From IMG/VR virus record IMGVR_UViG_3300024351_000022: a stretch of DNA of 64,000 nt. The stretch is one strand, 5' to 3'. The notes below the pieces were generated by a model. That model did not search any database and was not told the DNA's origin. It worked only from the letters and a program-made list of their open reading frames with translations. Position 1 is the stretch's first letter; every line of letters begins with the position of its first letter. Position numbers and translations under genes: made by a program. Of this stretch, positions 1,820 through 51,680 are shown piece after piece. The DNA comes from an uncultured virus (IMG/VR IMGVR_UViG_3300024351_000022). Lineage: Duplodnaviria; Heunggongvirae; Uroviricota; Caudoviricetes.

Positions 1820-4800
1820 TCAGAAGGGGATCTGCTGGGTGGTCGCATGGATGCCCTCGGCGGTCTCGCCGTCTTGGGCGACGACCATGTCGTGCGGTGC
1901 CAGCTCGGCTTCGTAGATCGGGATGAAGATGGATCGGAGGTCTTCATCCATGCTCTTCCAATCGAGGACCCAGAGGCCGCGATGGCTGCCGTCCTTTGGG
2001 ATGCGGAAGCGGTGCTCGCGCTCTTTCTTTGATGGCTTGATCCAGTAGGTCTGGCTCTTGAGTTCACCCTGGATGTTGGATTGGGCGATGGGTGATCCGG
2101 AGCCTTCGCGGCGGCGGCGGTCCACCTGATAGTCGGAGAACAGCTCGGACGGGCGGATGACGACGACCAGGCGGCCGGTGTTAGTCATGAGGCCATCGGG
2201 GATGGGGGTGATCTTGAATCCGTCTTTGTGGGATCCGTCCATCTGGACGCGGAGGACGCGGATGTATTTCTCGGTGCCGGGGATGGATTTCCGGCTGATC
2301 ATGGTGACGCATTCCGAGAAGAAGCGGTTCCGGAAAACGTCCTTTTCAATCTCTGTGTTCGATTCCTCTCCGTGATTGATGAACCACTCGTTCATGGCGC
2401 GGAATTCGACAAAGTCGGGGTGATCTGTGGCGAGGGAGAGGGGTGAGTGCCCGTGCAGGATTTCGTAGGCGGCAGCAATAGCCCCGACAAACAGGCCGAT
2501 GTTTTCGCGGGCGCGTGAGGTGCTGATGCGGTCGATGACCTTGGGGTTCGACTTGAAGGCTCGCATGAACTCCAAGGCGATCCGGGAGAACTTCTTCCGC
2601 TCGCGAATGATGAGGCGGCCGATGCGGTGGTAGTCATCGGAGTCGCGCATCATGCGGTCGAAGCGCTGGTTCCGTTCGATTTCGCGGGCTTGGTCTCGCG
2701 CCGCCCGCTGGCTTTCCGTCTCGTTCTCCGGGATCTGTTGACCGTAGTGAGGGGCGGCGATGATCCGGATGTAGCGGGAGCGTAGGGCGGAATCGACGGC
2801 GCTGTCCTCGCCGGTGGTGATGGCTGGCGTCATGGGCGTCATGGCCCGGGTGAGCTTGCCGCCTTGTGGTGTGCCTTTGTGCTGGGTGAGTTCGTTGTAG
2901 GCGGAGATGAAAAGGTCGAGCATGCGGCTGTCGATCTTGTCATTTCGCCATTCGTCAATGTGGAGGGGGAGTCCGCAGAATCGAGTGAAGGCTCGTTCGA
3001 TCCCGACCTTAGTGGAGCCGAGGGAGATGGGGTCGTAGGAATGGAAACCAAGCAGGCGCATCCCGAATCCTGTGGTCTTGGTCTTACCGGAGCCCTTCTC
3101 GCCTTGGATCGAGATGGAGGGCTTGCCGAAGGCCGGCTTGGCCTCGGGGTGGGTGAGGTATTGGAGGATGCCTGCCACGAGGGCATAACCAGCGTAGCCG
3201 CCGAAGCTGGCCTTGAAGTCGCTGATGGCTGCCTTCCATATCGGCTGGGCATCCCGCTTTTCCTGTTCCCAATCGATATCGTTGAATGCTGCGCGGGGGT
3301 CTTTGGCTCCGGGGAACAGGGATGGTGGGGTGTGGGAGAAGTTGGCCATCACGTCAGAATTGCGGAATCCGCGGCCTTGATGCCACACGATCCCGTCCTT
3401 TTTCGGGAAGAGGAAGGTGCCGGGTTCCTCGCCTTTGCCGTCGGCGATGGCGCAATCGAGGAACAGGTAGAGCTTGTGGTCCTTGTTCCAGCCGTAGGTG
3501 TCGATCTCCGTGATCTCTCGCTGGTGGTTTTCGATGTCGATGTGGCGGACCCACTTGTCGCATTCATCTTGGTTTCCGGACCAGTGATAGCCGCCCATGG
3601 AAATGAAAAATTTCCGAAGCTCCTGCGAGCTGCTCATCCGGTCGGCTGGCATCTGGTAGGCGCGGGAGCGGCGGCCGTTGGCGTCGATGAAAGTGATAAG
3701 GCGATCCAGGCGCGGTTCGCCCTTGTCGTCGTAAGCGAGGATCTTGTATTTGGAAATCGCGGTGAAGTCGGTGAACGACTTGGGGAGTTTGTAGAGGATG
3801 GTGTAGGCGGCTTGCTTGGCGGCGCGATAGCGGCGGAGTTCGTTCTCATCCGCGTTCGGGTCTCCCTCAAGGGCGGCGATGTTTTCGTTGATGTCATCGA
3901 GGGCGGCGATGGCTCGCTTCTCCATGTCCTCGGATGGTGGCTTGATGATGTAGTAGCCGCCAAAGCATTTGCGGAGTTCTTGAGCGATCTTCTTGACCTT
4001 GAGGCGGTGCGCGTATTTCGCGTGGCACCAGTTTTCGATCTCACTCGCGATGGACAGCTCGGTCTTGCCGCCGACGAAAATGTCAGGCTCGTAGCGGAGA
4101 CGGTGGAGTGCCTGTTGGATGACATCTTCCTTGGGGTCAGGCTGGAATGTGCCCGCCTCAAATTGCAGTTGGCGCGGCGACGGCCGCATGGTGGCGTCCT
4201 TGCCGTGCCGTCTTTCAAGGAACTGGAGGAATTCATCCTTGGCGGCATCGATGCCATCGTTGATGCCGCGTTCGCGGACGTGGTATGCCAGCCGTGAGTC
4301 CCAATCTGCTTTGTTGTTTTCCCTCCAATGGTCGGGGAGGTTTCCCCATAGGGATGTGAAACCGGAGTCCTCCAGGCATTCGGCGGTGAAGCGGGCGAAT
4401 GTTTCGGTCTCGAACCGTTCGTGGAAGGGCTTGTGGCTCTTGTCCTCGTTATCGAAGACTACGAGGGTCATGCGGACATCCGCGTTGCGGAGGCATTCCA
4501 CGGTATCGGTGATGGCTTGGCGATGGCTCCGGTTTTGCAGGAAATAGTGGATGCCTTGGAAGTAGAGTCCGGGGACGCCGCAAATCGCGAGGGCCATGCC
4601 CTTGAACTCGCCCTCGCCGATGACGGCGTGGTGCTTCCATGTCTCCGCCCGTGGCATGCCCAGGAGGTGCTTGCCGTAGGGGATGCGGAGGTTGTTGTGG
4701 AGTTTCTCGTAGTGGTCGGCCACCTCCTCTTGTTCCCGCCAGCGGGAGTTGGAGAGGGATTTCTTGTGAGGGCGCAGCAATTCGATGCGCCCGTCTTCCG

Positions 4801-5509
4801 TGATGTAGGGGATGATGATGGTGGGCTGGGTGACCCAGCGCTTGTCGTCATCGTCAAAGAACCGTCCGCAGAGTGAGTCTGCGATGCGGAGGTCATTGGT
4901 CTTGCGGTCCCGGACTGCGATCCCGGAGCGAAGCAGCACGTTCGGCGGGAATTTATCCAAGATGGGAGTGAGGAGTTCCCGGTTGGCAGGGATGGCGCTC
5001 TTCAGGCCGAATGCCTCTTGCCAAGAGTCGGGCATGCCTCGTTTCTCCCTCGTCTCGGCTCGGTGCTCGTCGGTGAGGGTGAGAAGTGACCATGCTTCCT
5101 CGTAGGGATTTCGGCCGATGTCCGGTAGCTGGATGAATTTCGGCGTGTTGAATTCGTCCTCATGGTCTGCCTGTGTTTCATCGATCTCCGTCCAGAGGTG
5201 GCTCAGTCCGGAGGCGTCAAGCAGCTTGCGAATCGCCTCAGTCTCGGTGAGTTCATCATGGAGTGCGATGAAGGCGACTTCATCCAGCCAGCCAGCGGCC
5301 CGGCATTTGAGGTTCTGGCAGGAGCATCTCCATGCTGCGTCCTCATCTTGGGAGAAGAGCAGTGACTTGGGGGATTCGCAAAATGGGCAGTCCGCTCGCT
5401 GGTCTTCGCCGATGGTGTGCCCCCGCACTTGGAAGAGAGTTGGCAGCACGCCAGCTCGGGTATGGGTGGCCTGGCGGATGGCTTGGCGGAAATACTCGCG
5501 GGCTTTCAT
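1820..5509 (-). CDS. Primase-helicase (Zn finger, TOPRIM-like domain, P-loop ATPase)
   Basis: CPFC...CSC Zn finger; EGEFK and VVFDNED TOPRIM motifs; Walker A GEKGSGKT, Walker B LHIDE; start MKAREYF overlaps the upstream stop (ATGA). Confidence 0.88.
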   Translation of the reverse strand: MKAREYFRQAIRQATHTRAGVLPTLFQVRGHTIGEDQRADCPFCESPKSLLFSQDEDAAWRCSCQNLKCRAAGWLDEVAFIALHDELTETEAIRKLLDASGLSHLWTEIDETQADHEDEFNTPKFIQLPDIGRNPYEEAWSLLTLTDEHRAETREKRGMPDSWQEAFGLKSAIPANRELLTPILDKFPPNVLLRSGIAVRDRKTNDLRIADSLCGRFFDDDDKRWVTQPTIIIPYITEDGRIELLRPHKKSLSNSRWREQEEVADHYEKLHNNLRIPYGKHLLGMPRAETWKHHAVIGEGEFKGMALAICGVPGLYFQGIHYFLQNRSHRQAITDTVECLRNADVRMTLVVFDNEDKSHKPFHERFETETFARFTAECLEDSGFTSLWGNLPDHWRENNKADWDSRLAYHVRERGINDGIDAAKDEFLQFLERRHGKDATMRPSPRQLQFEAGTFQPDPKEDVIQQALHRLRYEPDIFVGGKTELSIASEIENWCHAKYAHRLKVKKIAQELRKCFGGYYIIKPPSEDMEKRAIAALDDINENIAALEGDPNADENELRRYRAAKQAAYTILYKLPKSFTDFTAISKYKILAYDDKGEPRLDRLITFIDANGRRSRAYQMPADRMSSSQELRKFFISMGGYHWSGNQDECDKWVRHIDIENHQREITEIDTYGWNKDHKLYLFLDCAIADGKGEEPGTFLFPKKDGIVWHQGRGFRNSDVMANFSHTPPSLFPGAKDPRAAFNDIDWEQEKRDAQPIWKAAISDFKASFGGYAGYALVAGILQYLTHPEAKPAFGKPSISIQGEKGSGKTKTTGFGMRLLGFHSYDPISLGSTKVGIERAFTRFCGLPLHIDEWRNDKIDSRMLDLFISAYNELTQHKGTPQGGKLTRAMTPMTPAITTGEDSAVDSALRSRYIRIIAAPHYGQQIPENETESQRAARDQAREIERNQRFDRMMRDSDDYHRIGRLIIRERKKFSRIALEFMRAFKSNPKVIDRISTSRARENIGLFVGAIAAAYEILHGHSPLSLATDHPDFVEFRAMNEWFINHGEESNTEIEKDVFRNRFFSECVTMISRKSIPGTEKYIRVLRVQMDGSHKDGFKITPIPDGLMTNTGRLVVVIRPSELFSDYQVDRRRREGSGSPIAQSNIQGELKSQTYWIKPSKKEREHRFRIPKDGSHRGLWVLDWKSMDEDLRSIFIPIYEAELAPHDMVVAQDGETAEGIHATTQQIPF

Positions 5510-5877
5510 GCTCTGCCCTCCCCTCCGTTCTTTTCTCTCATGAAGCGGTCGTAGGGGTGTTCGATGCCTGCGCGGCTCAGTAGGGTGCGGACGGCCTGGC
5601 GGTTGTCGCACCCGTGAAGGATGGAGATGAGGCCGATGGTGTCGCCGCCGGAGTTGGCTGGGCAGGAAGACTTGAAGCAGCGAAACGAGTCCTCGCTGAT
5701 GATCATCTTCTGCCGCCCCCCGCAGCATGGGCAGATCCTCGCATAGCGTTTGCCTGCTCCTGCGCCGGTGATCTCGGTGCCTTGTTCTTGCAAGATGGCG
5801 GGGACGGTGCAGCGGGCGGAGGACTTGGCGAGGGTGATGGCGTCGCGCAGCTCGTCCCGGTAGTCGTTCTGGCTCAT
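5506..5877 (-). CDS. CHC2-type primase zinc-finger protein
   Basis: CPCC...FRCFKSSC...GGDTIGLISILHG...QAVRTL. Confidence 0.8.
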   Translation of the reverse strand: MSQNDYRDELRDAITLAKSSARCTVPAILQEQGTEITGAGAGKRYARICPCCGGRQKMIISEDSFRCFKSSCPANSGGDTIGLISILHGCDNRQAVRTLLSRAGIEHPYDRFMREKNGGEGRA

Positions 5878-6255: not shown

Positions 6256-6801
6256 ATGGAGTGGGGCTATCGGTGGAGGATGGTCGGCGACTTTCCGCCC
6301 GCCTATCTGGCGTGGCGGTCACCAGTGAAAACAAGCGAATGGATTAAGGTGGTTCAGTGCGATGCTGAGGGGTGCCGGGTGGAAGTTGAGTGGCACGATG
6401 GCGATGGCGATTGGAAGATTCCGGAGCATGTGCAGTTTCAAAGGGGGCAAGCGGAATTCAAGGTGGAAGCCAAGGCGAACGTTCGGCACAAGGGTTTCCG
6501 ACATTCCGCTTTTGCGGTGGTCAGGGATTCCGGTGTGGCGAGGTTTGATTTCCGCGCTGTGCTGGACATGGTGGCGGGTGAGGTGCAAATCGTGAAGGGG
6601 GTCGCGGATGCGCCGTGCGTTGCCAACCTGCTGATTGAGCCGGGTGAGTTCCGTTGCGAACAGGAGGGGGTCGTGATCACAAACGTCAGTGCCTGTGTCG
6701 GCGCGTGGAAAGCAGATGCGCGAGCGCCAATGCTGCGGAAGGTAGAAAGCCGTGGCTTTGTCTATGCTAAGGGGAATGCGAAGGAGGTGAACGATGGCTG
6801 A
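6256..6801 (+). CDS. Hypothetical protein (start uncertain)
   Basis: ORF downstream of TTGACC-N17-TATCAA (6155-6183), overlapping the next gene. Confidence 0.55.
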   Translation: MEWGYRWRMVGDFPPAYLAWRSPVKTSEWIKVVQCDAEGCRVEVEWHDGDGDWKIPEHVQFQRGQAEFKVEAKANVRHKGFRHSAFAVVRDSGVARFDFRAVLDMVAGEVQIVKGVADAPCVANLLIEPGEFRCEQEGVVITNVSACVGAWKADARAPMLRKVESRGFVYAKGNAKEVNDG

Positions 6802-9800
6802 TATCGGAGGAGGAGCGATCAAATCGCAAAAAGCCACCAAGGCTTGGGGGGTAAATCCTGCCAGCGCCGAGGTGGAAGTGGTGATCGATGATCCGGGCTC
6901 CTTTGCGCTTGAGGAGGGCGACTACGTCGCGTTGCAATTTGGCGGCGTCTCAACGTTCTTTGGAATCATCTCGCGGATTGAGAGCTACGTCTCCGAGGGG
7001 TCGGGCATCATGGTCAAATTCACCCTTCTGGATAATCGGATACGGTTGCAATGGGGGGAAGTGTTCGGGGCGTGGAACATCGAGGACCAGCGAGGGAATG
7101 CCTCGGCTGGTCGGGCCACCGCCGGGGTGGCAAATATCGGATCGGACTCGGGATCTCCCCCGGTGAGTGAAAACGTGAATTTCGGTGAGACGCCGGGGCT
7201 TGGTGCTTCTTCTAATCCTGGATTGGCGGTGCCTGCGAATCCTCAATTGGGGAGGAGGAAATACCTGCACCAACCGCCGGAGATGACGGCATCCGGGATC
7301 TGGATTGAGACGGATGAGCCGTTGTCGGCGCGGCAAATTCTGAACTCAGCGTTTGCCGGGGCGTGGTCATCGTATTCATTCGCGAGGTCCTATCATTCAT
7401 CCATGGATTCGATTTACCCGCTGGGTATCGACGCCACCGATGGCATGAAGCTCCAGTCTCTGGTTGCGCAAATCAACGAGGCGTGCGGTCTGGAGGTTCG
7501 GCTGGAAGGTTCAAGGACGCTGGTATGGGGACGGAAGGGCGATGGATTGCTGCCGGTGATACCATCCGACCATGCTGGGACGAGGAGAGTGGGCAGGGCT
7601 CTTTCCGCCAATGACACGGCCGTAATGGTCATCGGGGATGCGAACGTGGTGCAGGTGCTCAATCTTGAGTTGGAGCCGGATTGGAATCGTGAGTTCGAGG
7701 CGTTCATCGACGAGGCTGCATGGGTCCGCGAAGTGGCGCGTGCATTTGAGTTGGAGACGGACACAAAAGCCAAGCGTGCTGAGCTGATGGCCAGGGCCAG
7801 GGAAGTGACGGTTCTCCAGTATGCGACTAAAGTGGAGGATGCTGCATTCATGGATTACGGGATGCTCGGGGCGTCAAGCCGCTTGCATGTGCCGGTGTGG
7901 ACTTACGTGCAGGAGTTGGTTTTCAGGTCCTACCGCATCCCTCGTGATTACGCCTTTGGGGGTGTGCCGTTATCATCCCTGCGTGTCGCTCCGAAAATCC
8001 TTTGCGGCACTGAGATATCGGGGACGGGGTTGAGCGCGAACCAGCGATATCGTCGGACATTTGAGGCGTTCTATCCGGATGCGCGGATGGAGGTGGTGGT
8101 GCGCGGTCAACCCTTGGATCTGGTGGATGGGCGATCCATCCAACTGTTTTCGGCGAGAAGGATCACCAATCTGCGTGATCAATGGGTGCCCTATCAGGAT
8201 TTTGAGTTTGACGATGCCACTATGGCCGTTCGCTTTCGCTCGCCGATTTTCCTGGATGGAGATCCGGCGCAGGACAAGGCGCTGTATTCTTTGGTGAATA
8301 AAGGGAAGGGTGGAGGGGTGGATGTGACGGCGGCGGTGCCGGAGAATTCGAGTTATCTGGATGTGGTGGTGCCAAACCCGGCGTATCAAATTGAACCTGC
8401 TGGGGTGAAAGTGTCGCTGGCGTGGGAGTTGGGCAAATACAGGAAGGTTCGAGGTTCCGGCAATCGGAGAGGGAAGCTGAAGGTTCCGGGTTTGAGCATG
8501 CACCTGCTGGATGTTTCGCAGGATTCCGGATATTCATCTTCGGCGGTGGCGACGGTCACGGGGAATCCGGCATTCCTCCCAGCTTCGGGAGGAGTGGAGA
8601 TGAAAGAGATCAAACTGGAGTCCGGGCTTACGGCAGGGGACACGGCGGATGCGGCATCCGATGGGGTGATTCAACTCCAGCCGGTGGAGGACGATGGCAG
8701 CTTCGAGCGGTTCGGCCAGGGAGGCATGGGTCTTTCAAATACGATTGACCGGGTCACGATTGAGATCGGCGATCAAGGATTGAAGGAGACGGTTGAGTTC
8801 ACAAAGGCGCGGCCTTCGGCGTCATTCATGGCGGAGCGCTTGGTGGCTCGCATTCAGAGGGCGGGTGAGTTGTTTCCGGGGCAAGCGGCATTGAAACGGC
8901 AGATTGATTCCTATCGGCTGGAGGCGAAGTTGCAGGCCGGGATGACTTCGACCAGGTCGCCTACGCACAAGAAAATGGGCGATGTTAATTCGGTGCCGAT
9001 TGGAGCGGAGATTCAGAGCACGGTGCAGCATGTCGATGAGCTTTCTGCCGCTCCGGAAGGTGGGTGGAAGGCGGGGCACGTGGTTTGGCTGGATGATCAA
9101 GGCAGGCCGTCCACGGCTGGCACGGTGTTTGGTGGGGTGCTCGTCTCGGAGCCGTCTGAGGCGGGGTCTGGGGAGGAGAAGGTGGTGCTGAATTGCGCCA
9201 CGGCGGGAACGGTGCCCGTGATCTGTGAGGCGGGGACGGTGGATCAGGTTTGGTGCGACAAGGGGAGTAGCTTCGGCAGGCAGGATGGAACCTATTTCCT
9301 TGGCGAGCTGCGGCACGCCGATGCGGTGCCGGATGTGCCGGAGGCGGTGGGGCCGGTTGTCCGGGCAATGGTCGCGCTTGGGTTTGGCGGGGGAGTGGCG
9401 GAGGAGCTGTGTGGTTTCCAGCAAATCCGCACGGGCGCGTCAGCGGGGGAGGGATCGGAGTCCTCTGGCGGTGACTGGCAGATCGTTGGCGGCACGGTCG
9501 TCGCCGGTCCTCGTGCATGGGGTGTGGATCCGCATGAGATCCTCACCACCGTAGATGGAAGGTTCCGCTATTTTCTGCGCGTCAGAGTCACGATCAACTC
9601 GAACGCTGGTGTGGCATGGCCTGGCATCGAGTCTTCCGAGGAACCGGAGTGGGAACGGGTGACGGCGTCTGCGGGCTACCCTGAATCCTTCCTGCCGACC
9701 AACGTGGAAAAAACAGGCGATGTCATCATTCCCTTGATGCTTCTGGAGATCGAGGATGGGGTTCCTCGTATCATCCAGCGGGAGGGAGTGTGTTCGCCCA

Positions 9801-14186: not shown

Positions 14187-14956
14187 ATGAGGTATCCTGC
14201 TACGCGGTGCCGCTTACCCTCGGCCATAGGGCGTGCGATATGGTCATGGTCTCCATGGCGGCGACCTTGGGAATCCCTGCCGCATCGGCCATGGGTTTCC
14301 TCCATCGTCTCTGGCATGCTGTCGCCATGGACCCGCAAGGGCATCGGGCGGTCCCTGCCGAACGTTCGGCTTGGCCATCGTCTCGCGATGCGTGGGTGCT
14401 TGAGGCCGGTGCTGGTTGGCTGGGGGATCGCGGGGAGCTATTCACCCTCTGGGTGGACTCCGGGGTTATTGAGCTGCATCCCGATGCTGGGGAGGATGCG
14501 CAAATGCGGGTGGTGTTGGTCGGCTGGGCGGATGCCAACCGTCAAGGGCCGGGTGCCAAGAAGCTCGCTGCGCTTGGGGGTATCGCCAAGGCGCGCAACA
14601 GCGCGAGGAAAGTGGCCGAGGGCGATGCGGCGGAGCTGCTGGAGTGGTATCGCCGGAACCGTGTGGGGCTGCACGCGGAAGCGGGTATCGAGAGAGTCAA
14701 GGAGGCGGTGATCTTCGTGCGTCAGATTGAGCGGCTCATGCGGTGGGTGCCAGCCACCGAGAGGGCGTTCATGGAGGGGGCTGTGGAGAAATCCCTCAAG
14801 GCGTTGGACGCTCTTGGGCAAGACAAGGATATGTTCCTGAGCTGGCTGGTGGCAAATCGGGGCCGGGATATCATCCCTGGCCGCGTGGATCTCCTGCTCG
14901 GCGAGGTAGGGAAACTCCACGCTCACGCAAAATCTTGGATGGAGGCCATGCAATGA
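14183..14956 (+). CDS. Hypothetical protein resembling phage replication-initiator N-termini
   Basis: MGFLHRLWH...AGWLGDRGELFTLWVDSG...VGWADAN pattern; coupled. Confidence 0.55.
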   Translation: MNEVSCYAVPLTLGHRACDMVMVSMAATLGIPAASAMGFLHRLWHAVAMDPQGHRAVPAERSAWPSSRDAWVLEAGAGWLGDRGELFTLWVDSGVIELHPDAGEDAQMRVVLVGWADANRQGPGAKKLAALGGIAKARNSARKVAEGDAAELLEWYRRNRVGLHAEAGIERVKEAVIFVRQIERLMRWVPATERAFMEGAVEKSLKALDALGQDKDMFLSWLVANRGRDIIPGRVDLLLGEVGKLHAHAKSWMEAMQ

Positions 14957-16026
14957 TGAAGGCTCTAACGGTAAAACAGCCATGGGCTTCCCTTATTATC
15001 TATGGGGGGAAGGATATCGAGAATCGGTCATGGGCTACGGAATATCGTGGCCGGGTTTTCATTACGGCCAGCAAGGGGTGGAACAGCGGTGAGCAAGAGG
15101 CGGCCAAGGGGTTGATTGAGGACAGGAAAATTCCTCAGAAACTTTCGGAAACCTACACAAGGATTAACTGCGGCGGGGTGATTGGAACCGTGGAGATCGT
15201 GGATTGTGTCAAGCAGAGTGACAGTCCGTGGTTTGTGGGTCCTTTCGGTTGGGTGCTGAGGAATCCGCGCCCGCTGGTTTTCAGGCCGATGAGTGGTGCC
15301 TTGGGGTTATGGGATATGGAATACCCGGAGTCTGCGGTGGGAACCTCCCGGGTGCTGTTCCTGGACGTGGACGGCGTTTTGAATGGTGGCGTCGGCCGTG
15401 GGTTGGATGAGGTCATGCTTGCTCGACTGGGTTCGATCATCCGTCATGCGGATCCGGCCGTGGTCATCTCCTCCTCGTGGAGGATTGAGGCGGAGCTGCT
15501 GCGGCGGATCACTCTTGCGGTGGAGAGGCTTGGCGGGCGCGTCGTCGGTCATACCCCGTTGCCGGAGGAGGTGGGGCAGGGGAGTTGCAGGATCATCGCT
15601 GGAAGGGAGCGCTGGGTGGAGATTCAGGATTGGCTGGATGCCCATCCTGTGGCGGATGGGGAAACTCGCAGGGTGGTGATATTGGATGACGAGGCCGAGA
15701 TGGGTCCCTTGGGTGAATATCACGTGAGGACGGAATACGAAAGTGGCTTGCAGCGGCAGCATGTGGAGCGGGCTTTGCGCTTGCTGCTTGATCCGCCGAG
15801 GAAAACGGGTCCTACGGTATTGGAGTTGGGCAAGTGGTATGTCCTGCGCTCGGCCAGGGGGATCAGGTGGAAAGTCCGGCTGGTGACGATCAGCCCCTGC
15901 GGCAAATACTGTCGGGTGAGTTACTCTGGCAGCGCTGCGGGAGGTCGCCAATGTCTCGCGTCAGAGCTTGAGGACTGGGAGGAAAAGGCCGAGGCGGGCG
16001 GCCGTCTATGGAAGGAGGAGGCGTGA
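14953..16026 (+). CDS. ASCH domain fused to a Swiss-army-knife-type HAD phosphatase
   Basis: KALTVKQPWASLIIYGGKDIENRSW (ASCH); FLDVDGVLN, VVISSSWR, VILDDE (HAD). Confidence 0.82.
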   Translation: MMKALTVKQPWASLIIYGGKDIENRSWATEYRGRVFITASKGWNSGEQEAAKGLIEDRKIPQKLSETYTRINCGGVIGTVEIVDCVKQSDSPWFVGPFGWVLRNPRPLVFRPMSGALGLWDMEYPESAVGTSRVLFLDVDGVLNGGVGRGLDEVMLARLGSIIRHADPAVVISSSWRIEAELLRRITLAVERLGGRVVGHTPLPEEVGQGSCRIIAGRERWVEIQDWLDAHPVADGETRRVVILDDEAEMGPLGEYHVRTEYESGLQRQHVERALRLLLDPPRKTGPTVLELGKWYVLRSARGIRWKVRLVTISPCGKYCRVSYSGSAAGGRQCLASELEDWEEKAEAGGRLWKEEA

Positions 16027-16493
16027 GTAAGTCAAAGAGCGAAGAAGCCATGGCTAAGCGGGCATCTACCGTAAGGAATTGCGGTAATTGCAGATGGGCA
16101 AGTTGGGAGATGACAGAGAAGGGGAATCCTCGTAAGTCTATCGCGGGCAAATGCACGTATCCAATCCCTGACCTGCCGCCCATGCCATACGCTGTGATTG
16201 TCGAGACACCGCGAAAAAGGTTAGTGTGGGCAAACAAGGGAGCCGATTGTCCAACGTTCAGCGAAAAAGCCAAGTCAAGCCCATCGGATGAGATGGCATG
16301 TTCTGCGTCTTCTCTTTTGAGTGAAGCGAAGGAACGCCTATGCGACGCATCCGTCTGCAACCGAATGGGTAAGCCCGCACATTCCGCGGGATACGTGCGA
16401 TTGGCCATGGAGATACTGGCAAAAGCGGAAAAGTCGCTGCTGGGCCTTCCGGGGAACGCCAAAGCGCAGCCACCGACGAGAAAGGAAATCTAA
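16023..16493 (+). CDS. Hypothetical Cys-containing protein; its C-terminus runs into the first attC-like site
   Basis: GTGA-coupled start; CGNC motif; stop overlaps the Lar start (TAATG). Confidence 0.6.
   Translation: MSKSKSEEAMAKRASTVRNCGNCRWASWEMTEKGNPRKSIAGKCTYPIPDLPPMPYAVIVETPRKRLVWANKGADCPTFSEKAKSSPSDEMACSASSLLSEAKERLCDASVCNRMGKPAHSAGYVRLAMEILAKAEKSLLGLPGNAKAQPPTRKEI
16281..16306 (-). repeat. attC-like half-site remnant (R''-L'' arm only)
   Basis: CCATCGGATGAGAT-GGCAT-GTTCTGC resembles the right arms of the complete sites; partner arm not found. Confidence 0.4.
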
Positions 16494-16620
16494 TGGAACC
16501 CCCCTGCAAAACAGAAGACGACTGCCCCACGCCCACATGGTGCCGTGGTAAAGACCGCTGCCCCAAGCGGTATATCAAAGATAAAGCCAATGGGCGGTTG
16601 GCTGGCGCGGATTGTTCGCT
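16451..16620 (-). repeat. attC-like recombination site 1
   Basis: GGGGAAC-N6-GCGCAGCCACCG ... CGGT(T)GGCTG(G)CGC-N5-GTTCGCT; two unpaired bases. Confidence 0.8.
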
Positions 16621-16792
16621 CTTGCCGTGCCCGTTTTGTGGCTCTGAAGACGTGGGGTATTACGCCTATGCAAATGTCATCCGCTGTCATAACTGTGGGA
16701 CGGAAGGCCCGATTGACTCCGAACGCGATCAGGGCCGCGAGGTTGCCGCCGAAGTTTGGAATCGTAGAGCGAACGACCAAGGTATGCCATGA
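16493..16792 (+). CDS. Lar-family restriction alleviation protein
   Basis: LLPCPFCGS...VIRCHNCG...AAEVWNRRA. Confidence 0.8.
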   Translation: MEPPCKTEDDCPTPTWCRGKDRCPKRYIKDKANGRLAGADCSLLPCPFCGSEDVGYYAYANVIRCHNCGTEGPIDSERDQGREVAAEVWNRRANDQGMP

Positions 16793-16865
16793 ATGCCGCG
16801 CCCTCCAGCCCCGCCTCGCCAATGACTCCCACGCGGCAGTCATTGGCATCACCGCCTAGTTCGCC
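16768..16865 (-). repeat. attC-like recombination site 2
   Basis: AGCGAAC-N6-GGTATGCCATGA ... TCAT(T)GGCAT(C)ACC-N5-GTTCGCC. Confidence 0.85.
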
Positions 16866-17355
16866 CCGTTCGCTGAGTGGGCACCAGTCGGCCTGCATGA
16901 AGTCGGAAGTGTGGCTCACGCCACCGGAGATCCTGCAAGCACTCGGCACGTTCGATCTCGACCCATGCGCCCCCGCCGTGAGGCCGTGGGAGATGGCCCG
17001 TGACCATATCAGCTTACCCACCGATGGACTGGCAGCGGAGTGGCGGGGCCGCGTGTGGCTCAATCCGCCATTCGGCACCAAAGCAGCGGCATGGCTCCGC
17101 AAGATGAAGGCGCACGGGAACGGCATCGCGCTAATCCCGGCACGAACTGAAACAGCGATGTTCTATGAAAGCGTGTGGGGCGGTAGCGATGCTGTGTGCT
17201 TCCTCAAAGGCCGCCCTCATTTCCACCGCGTGGACGGCACGCGGGCACCATTCAACAGCGGGGCACCGATCTGCCTCGTAGCCTACGGACTCGACAACGT
17301 GGAGGCACTGGAACGCGCCTCGCTCGGAGTCGTGGTGCGTTGGGCGAACGCATAA
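16789..17355 (+). CDS. Phage Dam-type DNA N6-adenine methyltransferase
   Basis: WLTPPEIL, FDLDPCA, VWLNPPF, LIPARTET, FLKGR; alternative start at 16897. Confidence 0.85.
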   Translation: MNAAPSSPASPMTPTRQSLASPPSSPRSLSGHQSACMKSEVWLTPPEILQALGTFDLDPCAPAVRPWEMARDHISLPTDGLAAEWRGRVWLNPPFGTKAAAWLRKMKAHGNGIALIPARTETAMFYESVWGGSDAVCFLKGRPHFHRVDGTRAPFNSGAPICLVAYGLDNVEALERASLGVVVRWANA

Positions 17356-17430
17356 GCTGATGGACGCCGCCCTCACAGCCCGAATCCAAGATGGAACGTC
17401 CCCGGCGTTCCATCCAGCGCCTTGTTCGCC
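17343..17430 (-). repeat. attC-like recombination site 3
   Basis: GGCGAAC-N6-GCTGATGGACGCCG ... CGGCGT(T)CCATC(C)AGC-N5-GTTCGCC. Confidence 0.85.
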
Positions 17431-18001
17431 TGCGTTGTTGGACGTGTTTTGCGGCGTCGGAGGATGGACGAAAACGTTCATGGCTCGCGGCTGGAACTGT
17501 GTCGGCGTGGACCTCGCGGACTTCTCCGCCAGCTATCCCGGCCAGTTCGTGCAAGCGGATGCGCTGTCCCTGGATCACCAATGGATCAACCAGTTCGACG
17601 CCGTGCTGATGTCCCCGCCGTGCGAGGAATACGCCCGCGCCTGGCTGCCGTGGCTGCGTGGCGACAAGACCCCGGCCAAGTGGGCAATCGATCTGCTGGA
17701 ATGGTCCGTGGCACTCTGCGACCGACCGGGCCGCATGGTGGAATGCTCGAACTTCTCCGCCCGCCACGTCAAGGGCGCGGCCCGCGTGGGAAGCTACTCT
17801 CTCTGGGGTGACGTGCCCCTGCTCATGCGGCAAGTGCCGCGTGGGAAAATGGCGAAGTCCGGAATGCGCCCCGAACTACGCGCCGAGATCCCTGACGAAC
17901 TGGCCCGCAGCGTGGCGGAGTGGTTCGAGGCCGGTCTCGGATTCCGTCTGGCGAACGCAAACAGTGCTGCCACCGGCAGCGAAAGGAACGATCATGAGTG
18001 A
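17360..18001 (+). CDS. Short DNA cytosine-C5 methyltransferase-like protein
   Basis: LDVFCGVGGW (motif I), MSPPCEEY (motif IV); ATG lies inside the attC arm. Confidence 0.75.
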   Translation: MDAALTARIQDGTSPAFHPAPCSPALLDVFCGVGGWTKTFMARGWNCVGVDLADFSASYPGQFVQADALSLDHQWINQFDAVLMSPPCEEYARAWLPWLRGDKTPAKWAIDLLEWSVALCDRPGRMVECSNFSARHVKGAARVGSYSLWGDVPLLMRQVPRGKMAKSGMRPELRAEIPDELARSVAEWFEAGLGFRLANANSAATGSERNDHE

Positions 18002-18049
18002 GAAACTGGAAATCGAAACGCCGGTTGCCGCAGCCACGCCTTGTTCGGC
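17950..18049 (-). repeat. attC-like recombination site 4 (slightly degenerate)
   Basis: GGCGAAC-N7-GTGCTGCCACCGGC ... GCCGGTTGCCGCAGCCAC-N5-GTTCGGC. Confidence 0.75.
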
Positions 18050-18287
18050 TTGCTCGGGAATTCCAGTGAGCGGGACAACTGAAGCACAAGCCCGACAAAT
18101 CAAGGGCAACTCCTATCGCGTGTATCACGGTGGCGAGGGCAGCTCGTTCACAGATCACAACGATCTGGTGATGGCCCGTGCCTCTGCGTGTGGCCACCCG
18201 AATGCCGTCATCCACAACCTGCGTCCATTCAGTCAGCCGAACGCAATAGGTGAGGCACGGCGAGACAAGACGCCGCCTCAACAATAG
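17994..18287 (+). CDS. Small hypothetical cassette protein
   Basis: Start inside attC site 4 after GAAAGGA; stop inside site 5. Confidence 0.55.
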   Translation: MSEKLEIETPVAAATPCSACSGIPVSGTTEAQARQIKGNSYRVYHGGEGSSFTDHNDLVMARASACGHPNAVIHNLRPFSQPNAIGEARRDKTPPQQ

Positions 18288-18322
18288 ACTTTCCCGCCGT
18301 TGCCTCGACCGTCTTGTTAGCC
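18236..18322 (-). repeat. attC-like recombination site 5
   Basis: Minus strand reads GGCTAAC-AAGAC-GGTCGAGG...CCTCACC-TATTGC-GTTCGGC; textbook attC layout. Confidence 0.88.
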
Positions 18323-18353
18323 GTTCGGGGGACGCGGAAACCACAACAAACAT

Positions 18354-18671
18354 ATGGAAACCACAGAAGAAGCAGTAGGCAGAACCACGGAACTCCCGTT
18401 CGGCAATGCAATCGAAGCCCTCAAAGCAGGGCGCCGCGTGTCCCGCAAGGGATGGAATGGAAAAGGCATGTATCTCTGGCTGCTCCCCGCTGCCATGGTG
18501 AAAGCCGAATGGTGCCGCGAACCTCACTTGAAAGAGGTAGCGGAAGCCAATGGAGGTGAAATCGAAGCCCTTGGATCGATCCGCATGATGACCGCAGACA
18601 AGAAAGTCCTAACGGGCTGGCTCGCCTCGCAGACTGACATGCTGGCCGAAGACTGGGAAATCCTCGACTGA
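18354..18671 (+). CDS. DUF2829 / Thoeris anti-defence Tad2-like protein
   Basis: FGNAIEALKAGRRVSRKGWNGKGMYL...GWLASQTDMLAEDW. Confidence 0.88.
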   Translation: METTEEAVGRTTELPFGNAIEALKAGRRVSRKGWNGKGMYLWLLPAAMVKAEWCREPHLKEVAEANGGEIEALGSIRMMTADKKVLTGWLASQTDMLAEDWEILD

Positions 18672-18708
18672 CCAAACATGCCGGACATGGGGCGAGTGCT
18701 CTGTGTCC

Positions 18709-18807
18709 GGCGAACGCACAAGGTCTGCCATGAATGCCGCGCCCTCCAGCTCCGTCCTCGCCAATGACTCCCACGCGGCACTCATTGGCAGCACCGCCTT
18801 GTTCGGG
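18709..18807 (-). repeat. attC-like recombination site 6 (near copy of site 2)
   Basis: GGCGAAC-N6-GGTCTGCCATGA ... TCAT(T)GGCAG(C)ACC-N5-GTTCGGG. Confidence 0.85.
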
Positions 18808-19563
18808 CTTGCGCCGTTTCACCTTGTCGCGTTGAGCGGTGGCAAAGACTCTACTGCGCTCGCTCTTGAGTTGCGCGAACGCCATCCTGAAATCCCGTTC
18901 CGCTACTACATCACGCCGACAGGATGGGAACTGCCGGAAATGTTCGACTGGTGGCAAGAGCTTGGCGAAAGACTCGGATCGAAGATCATCCCTGTGATGC
19001 ACACAAGCCTTGGAGAGTGCATCAGAAACAACAAGATGCTCCCGAACTTCCGCGCTCGGTTTTGCACGCGGCAAATCAAGATCGAGCCAGCCAGAAAAAT
19101 GATGGCCGCGCTCGCTGCTCAAGGCGAAGTGAATCATTACGTCGGCCTGCGGGCGGACGAAGAAACCCGCCTTGGCGGGATCTTCGATGACATCGGAATT
19201 GTGAATCGTCACCCGTTCCGCGAATGGGGCTGGGGAGTAAATGACGTGTGGCAATGTCTCCAACGTCACGGACTGGCGGAACGCATCCCTGAGCGGACAG
19301 ACTGCGACGTGTGCTATCACCAGCAAATCGGCGAATGGTGGAAGCTCTGGACGAACCACCCTGACCGCTGGATGCGTGGCGAGAATCTGGAAATCGAAGT
19401 GGGCGGCACGTTCCGCACGCCAGGACGGGACACCTGGCCGACATCAATGCGCGAACTGCGCCAAGCCTTTGAGTCCGGCAGGATACCGAAAAGCGAGCGG
19501 CAGCCGGAACTATTCTCTCGCGGAACCATGACGGGGGGCGCGTGTCGCGTGTGCTCGTTATGA
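18730..19563 (+). CDS. PAPS reductase-family (PP-loop) protein
   Basis: LSGGKDSTAL, RFCTRQIKIEP, GLRADEETR, CDVCY. Confidence 0.85.
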   Translation: MNAAPSSSVLANDSHAALIGSTALFGLAPFHLVALSGGKDSTALALELRERHPEIPFRYYITPTGWELPEMFDWWQELGERLGSKIIPVMHTSLGECIRNNKMLPNFRARFCTRQIKIEPARKMMAALAAQGEVNHYVGLRADEETRLGGIFDDIGIVNRHPFREWGWGVNDVWQCLQRHGLAERIPERTDCDVCYHQQIGEWWKLWTNHPDRWMRGENLEIEVGGTFRTPGRDTWPTSMRELRQAFESGRIPKSERQPELFSRGTMTGGACRVCSL

Positions 19564-19567
19564 ATTG

Positions 19568-19592
19568 CCCGAACAGTGTGCTTATGCACGGC
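19568..19592 (-). repeat. Terminal core site / attC half-site closing the array
   Basis: CCCGAAC exactly complements GTTCGGG at 18801; followed by an L-box-like CTTATGCACGGC with no partner arm. Confidence 0.6.
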
Positions 19593-19611
19593 AGCGCAAA
19601 CCAAAATCCAG

Positions 19612-19950
19612 ATGGGACTGAAACGTAAAGGATTACAGGCACGCGCCGTCAAGCGGAAGGCGCTGTCGCGCAACCAGGTTGCGGCCAAAGAGAGGCTTCG
19701 CAAAGAGCGATCAGGGGGCGAGGAAGCGCTTGCTGATCGCCTCATGGCCGAGGCGGAAGATTGGGCGCGGCGGAATCCACTGCCGAAACTTCCGCCTGCG
19801 GCCAAAATCAGGATCGAGATTCCGGGGCTGCCTACCAAAGTCATCCGTGCTCGTAGGTGGCACACGGGAGAAGTGCTTGCGGGGAATCGGATCACGACCG
19901 CCAAGCAACTCGGAAGGCGCATTGGGATGCTTCTGGATCAGTTTCTTTGA
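19612..19950 (+). CDS. Basic hypothetical protein upstream of terminase
   Basis: ORF MGLKRKGLQAR... Confidence 0.5.
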   Translation: MGLKRKGLQARAVKRKALSRNQVAAKERLRKERSGGEEALADRLMAEAEDWARRNPLPKLPPAAKIRIEIPGLPTKVIRARRWHTGEVLAGNRITTAKQLGRRIGMLLDQFL

Positions 19951-19996
19951 GTCAAGCCGCTTGCGCAGTGGGGAGCGTTTCGATAGGTAGAACAAT

Positions 19997-21775
19997 ATGA
20001 GCATCACTTTGCGCCAATCAGAGTTGGAGGAGGCTATTCGTGACCCGGCCTTTGGTTTGTGGATGTTGACCGGCGTGGAACTGGATACGTTCCAGTCCGC
20101 CGCGCTGAAGACGATGTGGTTCACCAAGGAGGTGATCGATTCCAGTGCCATCAACACGGGTAAAACGTTCCGGCTCATTGGGTGGTGTATCCTGCGGGCG
20201 GTCCTGCTGCCGAATCCGCCGTCATTCCGATATCCCGGCCGCCTCATCGGGGCGTTTTACCAGGAGAAGGGATCGGTGGCGGAAATTTTCGTGAAGGAGA
20301 TGGATGCCATGATCTCCTTGCCGGGCGCTGGTTTGCTGCGGCGCGAGCTGAAGCGCCAGGTGCGCGGCCGGCTCGGCTACCACGAGGATGAGAACACGAT
20401 CAATTACCATTTCAGGAATGGCTCCTGCATCAGTGCTCCGGCGCTGAATGTGATGAGGAAATCAAAGACGATGGCGGGCCGCAGATACAGTGATGGCTAC
20501 GTGGAGGAATACACGCAAATCGACTCGGACTCGGATGCGCTGGATGAGCAGGTGCTGGACCGTGTGAACCGCGTGGATTTCAATCCGAAACACCCGGTAT
20601 GGTCGCCGCACATCATCCTTTCGGCCCACGCGGAGTGTCCGGACTCGCACCCGTCCTATGCGCGGATCAAGCAATACAGGGAGCTGATCCGCAATGGATC
20701 GCAAGACCACGCATTGATCACCTCCAGCTCGGAGGACTGGAGCGATAGGAATCCCCTTTTCAAGGTGAAGCGCGAGAAGGCGCTGGCGGACAGGCATCGA
20801 GACTCGCTGAAGCAGGGCAAGGCGAAGGTGGCGCAGAAGCACAAGGGTTTGTGGCTGGCTGGTGGGGCGGATTGGTATGACAACGATTTCCGCGACCACT
20901 GCCTGTGCATGGACATCCTACCCGAAAGCAAGGCCATGCCGGGGGCGCTCTATGCGCTGGGCTGGGACACGGCATCCAGCGGCGGGGAGAAGGCGGACTG
21001 GAATGCCGGTGTCACCTGCCGGGCGATTCCGGTGACGGTCAGGCAGCTCGGGCAGCCGGGGGTGATGCCCTTCGAGAATGGAACCTACTATCATATCTCC
21101 TTCACGCATGCCATCGGTGCGCTGGACAAGCGCTCTGCGGAATGCTCCGGGATCATCCATACGCTGCATCGGTGGTTTGGTTACAGCCGAATCGTCATGG
21201 ACGGCGGTGGCGGCGGGCAGATGGTCAAGAAGGATTTGTGGAGATCCGAGCAGATCATCGAGGGAGTGATGGAGCAGGGCGTGGTTGGCCTGTGCGAGTG
21301 GGGCATGGAGCACGTGTATCCCTCGTGCTTGCCCATCATCCAGGAGTTCAAGCCGACCGCTCCGCGTTTGCTGCACACGTGGGACCCGGGCTTCACGCGG
21401 GGCATGGATGGTTTGGTGGATAACATGCACCGGAAAATGCGGGATGCTTTCGAGACCAGGACCGTGGCCTGGCCAGCCACGGCCGAGATGCGCGGCGCGG
21501 CGGGGATGCGCGGCATGGGGAGAAAGGAGAGGGAGGCGCAGGAGTGGCTGGATCGGGCGTGGGGGCAGTTTGGCTCCGTGCGCATCCGTGCAGAGAAGGA
21601 TGGCCGGGCAAAGCTTACGAGTAATGGGTTCCATTCCTTCGAGGCGAAGGGTAAGCGAAAGAAGGACCTCGCTTACGCGGCGCTCTATGCGTTCATCGGC
21701 ATCATCTCACTGATCACGGACCCTGAGGTGGGGGGGGGTGAGTCGGCGGATGACGAGGATATGTATTCGAGCTGA
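19997..21775 (+). CDS. terL: Terminase large subunit
   Basis: Walker A INTGKT, GYVEE Walker B-like, RNase H-like LGWDTA, IVMDGGGGG, KDLAYA; precedes the portal. Confidence 0.8.
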   Translation: MSITLRQSELEEAIRDPAFGLWMLTGVELDTFQSAALKTMWFTKEVIDSSAINTGKTFRLIGWCILRAVLLPNPPSFRYPGRLIGAFYQEKGSVAEIFVKEMDAMISLPGAGLLRRELKRQVRGRLGYHEDENTINYHFRNGSCISAPALNVMRKSKTMAGRRYSDGYVEEYTQIDSDSDALDEQVLDRVNRVDFNPKHPVWSPHIILSAHAECPDSHPSYARIKQYRELIRNGSQDHALITSSSEDWSDRNPLFKVKREKALADRHRDSLKQGKAKVAQKHKGLWLAGGADWYDNDFRDHCLCMDILPESKAMPGALYALGWDTASSGGEKADWNAGVTCRAIPVTVRQLGQPGVMPFENGTYYHISFTHAIGALDKRSAECSGIIHTLHRWFGYSRIVMDGGGGGQMVKKDLWRSEQIIEGVMEQGVVGLCEWGMEHVYPSCLPIIQEFKPTAPRLLHTWDPGFTRGMDGLVDNMHRKMRDAFETRTVAWPATAEMRGAAGMRGMGRKEREAQEWLDRAWGQFGSVRIRAEKDGRAKLTSNGFHSFEAKGKRKKDLAYAALYAFIGIISLITDPEVGGGESADDEDMYSS

Positions 21776-51192: not shown

Positions 51193-51411
51193 TTAAAGGT
51201 AGTCGAGGATCTGCTGGATGGTCTCCAGCTTTTCGGCGTCTTCGTCTGGAATCTCAATGGAGTATTCCTCTTCGATGGCCATGATGATTTCGACGCAGTC
51301 AAGGGAGTCGGCACCGAGATCGTTGATGAGGTTTGACTGCGGGGTGATGTCTCCGGGGGAGATGCCGAGGTGTTCGCAAATGATTTCGCGGAGGGTATCG
51401 AGATGGTTCAT
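51193..51411 (-). CDS. acpP: Acyl carrier protein
   Basis: [35 protein letters not shown]. Confidence 0.92.
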
Positions 51412-51680
51412 GATGTTGGTGGAGTGGTTCCTTGTTTGAGGTTGCGTTTGCTTTTTGGATTCAGGGAGAGGGATTCGATGAAGGTTCCTGCCGCTTCTGC
51501 GGCGGCGAGGGCGGCGTCCAGGGTGGCGACGCGCCATGTCTCCCGGCCGTTGGGCGTGCGGGAGAGGGGCCGCATGATCGCCTGATGGTGCTGCCGAAGG
51601 CCAAGGAAGATCCTTTCGCCGCCCACGTAAGGGATGGCTTCAGGTGTGCTGAGGACGGCCTTGGTGGCAAAGGCGGGCAT
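51408..51680 (-). CDS. Hypothetical protein
   Basis: ATGA-coupled to the ACP gene. Confidence 0.55.

Follow-up and report, generated by a model that had tools for sequence, protein, structure and literature searches.

Uncultured virus record IMGVR_UViG_3300024351_000022 holds six small open reading frames (ORFs) that lie head to tail at positions 16493–19563 (+), and the question raised by this locus is what kind of element joins them and what it is for. The window, by which is meant the whole 64,000-nucleotide stretch analysed, places these ORFs between accessory/early genes and terminase genes. It further encodes a tape-measure protein, a tyrosine integrase and a serine recombinase, and is therefore phage or prophage DNA. 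An initial annotation had described the ORFs as a phage counter-defence cassette bank, the mirror image of the integrons in which bacteria keep anti-phage genes. The answer reached here is that the region 16451–19574 (+) is an integron-type array of six cassettes inside a phage with a putative counter-defence role, a combined reading to which we assign a probability of roughly 0.6. Because no integron integrase (IntI) occurs in the window, the array is classed as a cluster of attC sites lacking integron integrases (CALIN).

attC sites of the array

The cassette nature of the window units is strongly supported. Each unit consists of one attC site followed by one ORF, and every junction between ORFs has the form GCGAAC...hairpin...GTTCG. 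The sites, named J0 to J5, are listed with their scores under covariance model R1 and, where given, with the parameters of a geometric scanner, both of which are treated below the list; the last line gives the right end of the array.

16451–16620 (+): attC J0, 170 nt; R1 34.8 bits, E 3e-7; left end of the array
16768–16865 (+): attC J1; R1 69.8 bits; scanner u5=6, u3=5, s1=3, s2=5; carries AAGG...ATG (16789)
17343–17430 (+): attC J2; R1 82.9 bits; the upstream ORF ends AAC GCA TAA inside it, then ATG 17360
17950–18049 (+): attC J3, variant geometry; R1 33.2 bits, E 9e-7; ribosome-binding site (RBS) and ATG 17994 in the loop
18236–18322 (+): attC J4; R1 68.1 bits; scanner match with the same geometry
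18709–18807 (+): attC J5, paralogue of J1; R1 77 bits; AAGG...ATG 18730 in frame with the sixth ORF
19567–19578 (+): right end of the array; R-box half-site GCCCGAA|CAGTG, which resembles the attI junction of IntI-bearing phages

Single-sequence folding gives all sites a shared plan, in which a conserved outer stem leads through a short internal loop into a long inner stem that is capped by a large terminal loop; the inner-stem sequences differ wholly between sites. Two extra bases, 5–6 bp apart, were read by hand in the 3' arm of every site. RNAalifold, run on a MAFFT alignment of ten sites, recovered the outer stem only, and the inner stems come from folding together with the purpose-built scanner. 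The resulting structure has the plan of attC: AAC/GTT R boxes, an unpaired spacer, an L stem of 3+5+≥5 bp, two extrahelical bases and a variable loop. Six same-strand sites of 87–170 nt with a start-to-start spacing of 286–607 bp have the make-up of a CALIN. In J0, whose stems and two extra 3'-arm bases were likewise read by hand, the long terminal loop contains the RBS and ATG of the first gene, lar. The 97-nt repeat that precedes the second and sixth genes (J1 and J5) is 91–94% identical between its copies with a 1-nt indel, and hence is conserved as DNA rather than as peptide. When the recombination point is placed at GAA|C in the 5' R box, by analogy with bottom-strand recombination, the cassettes measure 317, 575, 607, 286, 473 and 859 bp; these lengths were written down before any population data were examined.

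The geometric scanner finds four sites in the window, all on the (+) strand and with identical parameters, plus one stray match, and gives 0–5 matches in each of ten shuffled windows; its strict version misses J0 and J3. The control was the class 3 integron KJ631731, in which intI3 and blaGES-1/aac(6')-Ib lie on opposite strands, and the same parameters detect its blaGES-1 attC on the intI3 (bottom) strand. Model R1, built from 20 scanner sites, finds exactly six sites in the window, all (+), with the next best match at 13 bits (E 0.35). It recovers the four window sites of its training set at 68–83 bits, and J0 and J3, which were outside that set and previously seen by eye only, still reach the E values listed above. 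The term 'cassette' in the initial annotation is thus borne out, since R1 sites bound the ORFs. R1 is also specific: it has no match in seven chance-looking loci from a pattern scan of viral contigs (L001, L002, L004, L007, L008, L014 and L015) and none in 79 metagenome loci (~370 kb) that carry Tad2, a gene family to which the fifth cassette belongs. Among 64 distinct sites, the L stem is 98.6% paired and 10 of its 11 pairs have changed on both sides. The covariation score of 0.612 compares with 0.178 for shuffled alignments, none of the 500 attaining it, and with no more than 0.087 when the partners are slid, in an alignment that was fitted to the model and so favours the structure. AAC and GTT pair in 63–64 of the 64 sites, and the outer four pairs are 40–73% paired.

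Integrase-bearing relatives and signs of cassette turnover

Related sites occur beside integron integrases in other viral contigs. Scanning IMG/VR for the exact pattern gave 19 loci, close to the estimate for chance, of which only L005/L012, L010, L016, L017 and L018 are real; the seven chance-looking loci without an R1 match named above are those rescanned among the other twelve. ORFs beside homologous sites in L012 and L018 pass the integron integrase model TIGR02249 (268.4 and 331.8 bits; cutoff 265), and the L018 integrase shares 45% identity with IntI3; viral contigs contain 28 relatives of it. R1 has 100 matches in the 41 loci searched. Of the 79 matches in the 28 IntI loci, 75 are on the intI strand (71 upstream of intI and 4 downstream) and the remaining 4 are on the opposite strand. 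At least one match occurs in 23 of these loci, and two of the five without a match start at intI itself. The largest arrays comprise 11 sites (L026) and 13 sites (L010). J1 and J5 are 87–89% identical to an attC of the IntI contig L021 (J1: 6796–6890; J5: 6796–6888), a similarity confined to the attC, from the cleavage point in one R box to the other R box, and J2 shares 72–79% identity with three attC copies in L010 and with attCs of L031 and L035. Only the Dam-type and second methyltransferase cassettes are common to the window and other loci.

The related phages appear to carry intI in a slot equivalent to that of the window array. At least L029, which encodes an SU10 major capsid protein, is a real phage, and its intI lies between methyltransferase (MTase) cassettes and large late ORFs; in L037 the order is DnaB, SSB, an MTase cassette and then intI. 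The large ORFs downstream of intI in L026, L029 and L037 have no PHROGs match, so that 'terminase next to intI' in these contigs is read from position and from the SU10 capsid match in L029. A complete integron, with intI and attI beside the array, was not found in the window, where only the CGAACAGTG junction at the right end is like the attI of the relatives; CGAACAGTG recurs at the junction upstream of intI in five of eight aligned IntI loci (alignment A5).

Three further observations concern the IntI loci themselves. In L020–L047, the last 45–80 nt before intI contain a conserved attI-like junction, GCCGAAC|AGTGATTATCC(A/C)GA(A/C)CAACTTTCCAGATAGCC, followed by ~25–30 nt and the ATG. The last attC and this junction are usually separated by a small ORF of 76–89 aa. 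At 11901–12383 in L036/L037, two R1 attC sites occur on the same strand ~3 kb downstream of intI, outside the main array.

An integron-type array is not the only element that could produce such repeats. They might be a phage-specific intergenic element (a terminator, a regulator site or a linker for homologous recombination) that merely resembles attC, and nine other places in the window do hold the R-box sequence GCCGAAC/GTTCGGC as a 12-nt palindrome, which may carry a phage- or host-specific meaning. Against this, a bona fide attC of class 3 is picked up with the same model and geometry, the R1 matches in IntI loci mostly lie upstream of intI on its strand, and the palindrome is absent from those loci. 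We regard this explanation as very improbable.

The palindrome merits description in its own right. CCGAACGTTCGG has nine exact copies, at 692, 14358, 21777, 28551, 37587, 46115, 57404, 61955 and 63741, mostly as AGCCGAACGTTCGGCT(TG), with 0.01 copies expected from shuffles. The copies are mostly intergenic according to the ORF list, and one directly follows the stop codon of the large terminase gene. Its half-sites are the R-box consensus of this phage's attC (GCCGAAC and GTTCGGC), joined with no loop between them. Its possible roles are those of a site for a regulator, a terminator, or a secondary target that an integron-type recombinase would use in double-stranded form.

The cassette ORFs lie on the attC bottom strand, inverted with respect to the class 3 control, and the same holds in the IntI loci, where Pfam-positive ORFs run toward intI. 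At 62 of 76 unique sites, the longest upstream frame takes the AAC of the R box as a codon; among the 57 sites with a clear upstream ORF the number is 52, where one third would be expected by chance. Frame-0 ORFs stop 2–33 codons later inside the attC, in 14 cases two codons after AAC, as in J2. Several attC sites provide an RBS-like AAGG and an ATG for their own cargo, and the 1-nt indel between J1 and J5 places each ATG in frame with the gene that follows it. This inverted, frame-locked design departs from the Pc-driven model of integron expression.

Signs of mobility come from protein and contig comparisons. The 97-aa product of the fourth cassette parts from its homologue P0002 (77% identity) directly behind ...SQPNA, a stretch that the R box encodes. 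Logan contigs from four runs of four studies were placed on the window with likeness set at 90%. A contig of X18, a DNA run not flagged as source of the record, joins 18710 to 19570 and omits 859 nt, with 5 ambiguous letters; the letters between the two sides of the joint are recorded as 'not known'. The omitted length is that predicted beforehand for the sixth cassette, and this cassette-precise skip is suggestive of mobility. In X17, a sediment run, a contig follows the sixth cassette to 19574 and then continues into unlike sequence, and in X19, an RNA-library run, a contig matches from the right as far as 19571 and is unlike the window before that point. A joint from 17351 to 19633, whose shorter side has 23 letters, and a small X17 piece at 17308/17430 were discounted as unreliable, and no weight was given to the lower word depth of contigs across the body of the sixth cassette or to gaps in RNA contigs. 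Most of the array is covered by RNA-library contigs (e.g., X20, 18303–18671), a coverage that is not proof of transcription.

These comparisons bear on a second alternative, in which the array is a fossil: the attC sites would be real but inert, the genes fixed phage accessories and the hairpins at most RNA-level translation or terminator elements. This would agree with the lack of an IntI in the window, and with the metagenome contig L067, which holds an identical copy of the Tad2-like gene, is the only other DNA copy examined and has the same six sites. Since the attC sites enclose RBS and ATG and the ORFs are translationally linked, selection at the RNA level could also maintain the sites. 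The 859-nt skip and the contigs that diverge at R boxes, in three runs from three studies, suggest ongoing turnover instead. Sites of unrelated sequence also keep to integron specification in their two extrahelical bases and stem geometry, which an RNA hairpin would not need. A fossil array is judged unlikely.

Cargo genes and their possible function

The cargo of the six cassettes is as follows.

16493–16792 (+): cassette 1 ORF, Lar-family zinc-ribbon protein, 99 aa; Lar domain at residues 43–93
16789–17355 (+): cassette 2 ORF, Dam-family N6-adenine DNA methyltransferase; alternative ATG 16897
17360–18001 (+): cassette 3 ORF, short S-adenosylmethionine (SAM) methyltransferase, C5-cytosine-MTase-like; motif I FCGVGG, motif IV SPPCEE
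17994–18287 (+): cassette 4 ORF, 97-aa protein of a rare family; conserved core of ~55 aa
18354–18671 (+): cassette 5 ORF, Tad2-like (DUF2829) protein, 105 aa; wholly outside attC sites
18730–19563 (+): cassette 6 ORF, phosphoadenosine phosphosulfate (PAPS) reductase / PP-loop ATP-pyrophosphatase, SspD-like; start in the ORF list GTG 18703, ATG 18730 likelier

Five of the family assignments that the initial annotation had made from motifs survive a check with hidden Markov models, the C5-MTase only as a resemblance. The Lar-like protein exceeds the curated cutoffs of PF14354 (40.3 bits; cutoff 28.6) and TIGR03655 (43.7; cutoff 39.6), matches phrog_599 (5.7e-11) and has the CxxC...CxxC zinc ribbon as CPFCG...CHNCG in translation. 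The N6-adenine MTase is confirmed by PF05869, marginally (29.6 bits; cutoff 28.1), by phrog_111 (3.7e-35) and by the catalytic (D/N)PP(Y/F) motif, present as NPPF; PADLOC oMTase matches at 2.5e-10, and the score under the TIGR01712 equivalog model is below cutoff (24.3 vs 97). Its first 36 residues are encoded by attC, and its Pfam domain begins at residue 39.

The second MTase matches phrog_363, 'DNA methyltransferase' (9.6e-12), and PADLOC mad2 (1.6e-8), with no Pfam family at cutoff and no PF00145 match. Its family comprises 116 short homologues, seven of which have a precomputed PF00145 assignment, with a conserved core of ~170 aa that begins near residue 25; the N-terminal ~25 residues are unconserved in the family alignment and encoded by attC. 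As a single sequence it has no sequence match in PDB, and the family profile finds DNMT2 (4.7e-7), M.HaeIII and M.HhaI over motifs I–IV only (positions 2–71). The likeness to C5-MTases proposed earlier thus stands for motifs I and IV and does not extend to PF00145 membership or to the full motif set I–X with a target-recognition domain. The protein is 66% identical to a cassette ORF in the IntI contig L012.

The 97-aa protein of the fourth cassette has no match in Pfam, PHROGs, NCBIfam or PADLOC, which agrees with its earlier description as uncharacterised, and its suggested role in anti-defence follows from position only. Four true homologues were found among 1.8 billion representatives (P0002, P0003, P0007 and P0009), in which the leading CxxC motif is not strictly kept. 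A check against Pfam led to the rejection of four long repeat proteins (P0004, P0005, P0006 and P0008) as HMMER repeat-summed artefacts. AlphaFold2 (AF2) models have a predicted local distance difference test (pLDDT) score of 38.7 from the single sequence and 51.3 from five sequences, and are unreliable. By association and position, the protein is a candidate counter-defence gene.

The DUF2829 assignment of the fifth cassette is upheld, with 80.8 bits under PF11195 (cutoff 25). In a phmmer search of PDB, seven solved Tad2/AcrIIA7 sequences match at 1.2e-17 to 4.7e-14, including SptTad2 (8wjd, 1.2e-17), an AcrIIA7-type protein (5.9e-17) and SPO1 Tad2 (4.4e-14). The sixth protein is PAPS-reductase-like, as first described, by PF01507 (30.3 bits; cutoff 22.5), phrog_424 (6.5e-34) and a PP-loop SGGxDS motif present as SGGKDS. 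It fits PADLOC SspD at 6.4e-42 (142 bits), far above its match to CysD or DndC, and has no sequence match in PDB. No SspA, SspB or SspC partner was found among the window ORFs scanned by profile libraries.

For four of the six window cassettes (those of Lar, the Dam-type orphan MTase, the C5-like MTase and Tad2), counter-defence members of the family have been published. The SspD-like cassette encodes a DNA-modification-type enzyme that has no known role in phages and no established anti-defence role. A sister cargo set was formed from the ORF after each R1 site in related loci (68 non-redundant ORFs), 14 of which reach a Pfam cutoff. These 14 comprise eight DNA MTases (two Dam, four N6_N4 and two C5, one of the latter exactly at cutoff), two RNA ligases with equal scores that are possibly one cassette counted twice, one Acb2/Tad1-hairpin protein (30.7 bits vs cutoff 27), one PAPS reductase, one Rv2179c-type exonuclease and one primase zinc ribbon. 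Two further ORFs are MTase-like below cutoff. A PHROGs comparison of seven of the 68 adds one MTase (1.3e-72) and one weak Mom-like match (3.4e-6). Within this annotated minority, DNA modification dominates and is joined by a second kind of signal sponge. Judged by sequence, the cargo would be best explained as a counter-defence and DNA-modification repertoire. The idea of a phage counter-defence cassette bank holds in so far as the cassettes are bounded by attC and the sister cargo is alike, and is not wholly new, since Qi et al. (2023) had already described phage cassettes of related kind.

A third alternative is that the cargo serves the phage's own DNA metabolism or regulation, through methylation for packaging or gene timing and through PAPS-like sulfur or nucleotide metabolism. 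The array adjoins the terminase, PHROGs files the PAPS-reductase family under 'moron, auxiliary metabolic gene', and PDB and the literature yielded no link between phage PAPS reductases and anti-defence. Lar and the Tad2-like protein have no known housekeeping role, the latter matches experimentally characterised sponges at 1e-17, a sister array carries the Acb2/Tad1-hairpin protein, and the PAPS-like protein fits the SspD model of DNA phosphorothioation far better than CysD or DndC. These points make a purely metabolic cargo improbable, more so than a fossil array.

Under the preferred reading of a mobile counter-defence array, the cassettes would be transcribed with the phage operon that runs toward the terminase. 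The two MTases, and perhaps the SspD-like PP-loop enzyme, would modify phage DNA, Lar would alleviate type I restriction, and the Tad2-like protein may sequester signal nucleotides of Thoeris and possibly of the cyclic-oligonucleotide-based anti-phage signalling system (CBASS). An integron integrase acting in trans would bring in, remove and exchange cassettes.

A wider proposal, which is tentative and held at slightly less than even odds, is that an uncultured phage lineage has an integron of its own, with intI, attI and up to 11–13 attC cassettes between replication/accessory and packaging genes. Its cassettes would be 'inside out' and would trade counter-defence genes among unrelated phages, and the window array would be an integrase-less member serviced in trans. 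Each junction would fall within an Asn codon (AA|C) in one frame, with attC supplying the stop codon and often the RBS and ATG. If this is true, an inserted cassette would be expressed at once within the phage operon, and the traded genes would be methyltransferases, Lar, Tad2, Acb2/Tad1-like sponges, Mom-like proteins and PAPS/SspD-like enzymes. The roughly three quarters of cassettes without a family match, including 17994–18287, would then be a concentrated source of new anti-defence proteins.

Several points weigh against a mobile counter-defence array and account for the reserve with which it is put forward. Neither an integron integrase nor a remnant of one was found in the 64-kb window by tblastn and TIGR02249, and the tyrosine integrase encoded there scores 25.6 bits under TIGR02249 (cutoff 265) and is not an IntI; recombination therefore needs a helper, and none was seen. 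The window R boxes read NNNGAAC/GTT(C/A)GNN against the textbook RYYYAAC/GTTRRRY, with G for the last Y and C or A for the first R. Orientation was calibrated on one control attC, and the second attC of KJ631731 went undetected. The X18 joint comes from assembled contigs with a shorter side of 25 letters at 90% likeness, and such joints may be artefacts. As to cargo, 50 of the 68 sister ORFs have no match in the libraries used, and enrichment was judged on the annotated minority without a background set, so that it is a pattern and not a statistic. Among 80 metagenome loci with Tad2 relatives (35–100% identity), only the identical copy, L067, has attC; the other 79 are not cassette-borne, and the gene families are therefore ordinary phage accessory genes. 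A Dam enzyme near the terminase could also serve packaging or gene regulation, as in P1, rather than defence evasion.

Genomic setting and comparison with known systems

The genes immediately downstream of the array are the following.

19576–21775 (+): basic 124-aa ORF, small-terminase-like by position only, and 592-aa homologue of the large terminase TerL

Neither ORF has a Pfam or PHROG match. In tblastn, the 592-aa ORF is 23% identical to TerL of Bacillus phage Stahl (E 2e-4), which makes it a distant large-terminase homologue. Its only relative in species-genome contigs is 75% identical and lies in L049, a Verrucomicrobiia metagenome-assembled genome whose contig stops 437 nt upstream of TerL, which leaves the array region outside the comparison; no relatives were found in IMG/VR viral contigs or metagenome contigs. 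The host of the phage is probably a member of Verrucomicrobiia.

Directly upstream of the array, 14953–16026 encodes a fusion protein of ASCH and HAD_SAK_2 ('Swiss Army Knife RNA repair') domains. The IntI phage L029 likewise has a HAD_SAK_2 protein upstream of its cassettes, and both L021 and L026 carry RNA-ligase cassettes; together these occurrences may point to a counter-defence theme of RNA repair. Elsewhere in the window, two 300-nt stretches with 86–90% identity (2375–3107 vs 49923–50655) lie 47,548 nt apart inside DUF927 (P4-type primase-helicase-like) genes at 1820–5728 and 49905–51071, and could reflect two related elements or a partial duplication. An acyl-carrier-protein-like PP-binding ORF at 51193–51537 (-) and a DnaJ-domain ORF at 52961–53560 (-) are both unusual as phage cargo.

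The nearest known systems are the phage integrons of Qi et al. (2023; PMC9892861). That paper describes integrons or CALINs in 21 phages, 17 of them phage CALINs, demonstrates IntI1 recombination for five phage attC sites, and reports five MTase cassettes for which a benefit against host defence is proposed. The window array resembles those phage CALINs as an integrase-less attC cluster in a phage with MTase cargo. Set against section 3.4 of the same paper, it differs in having six cassettes that add Lar, a Tad2-like sponge and an SspD-like enzyme, in lying beside the terminase, and in carrying ORFs on the attC bottom strand that are frame-locked through the R box. It further differs in that at least 28 related uncultured viral contigs encode intI, which in L029, the sole contig with a capsid match, lies between cassettes and large late ORFs.

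Bacterial sedentary chromosomal and mobile integrons bank anti-phage defence cassettes, according to a recent preprint (10.1101/2024.07.02.601686). The likeness lies in a platform that stockpiles small, shuffleable immunity-related cassettes. Where the bacterial banks described there have a bacterial carrier and anti-phage cargo, the locus studied here has a phage carrier, an annotated cargo of counter-defence and DNA modification, and no integrase in the window. With class 1/3 cassettes (KJ631731; PMC8876359) the window sites share 7-nt R boxes with AAC/GTT, a 6/5-nt unpaired spacer, a stem of 3+5+≥5 bp, two extrahelical bases on the 3' arm of the bottom strand and, in the IntI-bearing relatives, the orientation of attC relative to intI. 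They differ from class 1/3 cassettes in their antisense ORFs, which run toward intI or the terminase rather than away from intI, in start codons that often lie inside attC with stops in the next attC, and in an R box with GAAC rather than YAAC.

Among the Tad2/AcrIIA7 sponge proteins (8wjd, 8kbi, 8sme), the Tad2-like protein aligns with SptTad2 and the 8kbi protein in the GWNGKGM and GWLASQTDMLAEDW blocks, and the insertion between these blocks is of intermediate length. According to a preprint on the family (10.1101/2023.11.15.567273), the site for glycocyclic ADP-ribose (gcADPR) is conserved in ~99% of Tad2 homologues. The window copy is set apart from the other Tad2 relatives, 79 of the 80 examined, by being cassette-borne. 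In T4-type phages, promoter-stem-loop (PeSL) cassettes consist of small accessory genes flanked by short conserved structured repeats in a plastic region. As units of promoter and terminator, PeSLs are considered to work through homologous recombination. The window sites differ from them in having integron attC geometry and homologous sites beside integron integrases.

In a literature search of limited coverage, no paper was found to connect attC with Tad2, to treat phage integrons as banks of anti-defence genes or to describe reverse-orientation cassettes with start codons inside attC. What is new is a phage CALIN tied to an intI-carrying phage family, with inverted, frame-locked cassettes and a cargo that reaches beyond MTases to Lar and Tad2. 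Such arrays would potentially give unrelated phages a recombination route by which counter-defence genes are swapped cassette by cassette, and attC boundaries would flag new anti-defence genes among small family-less ORFs by sequence. The locus and its relatives suggest that phages use integron machinery for a purpose opposite to that of the anti-phage banks of bacteria.

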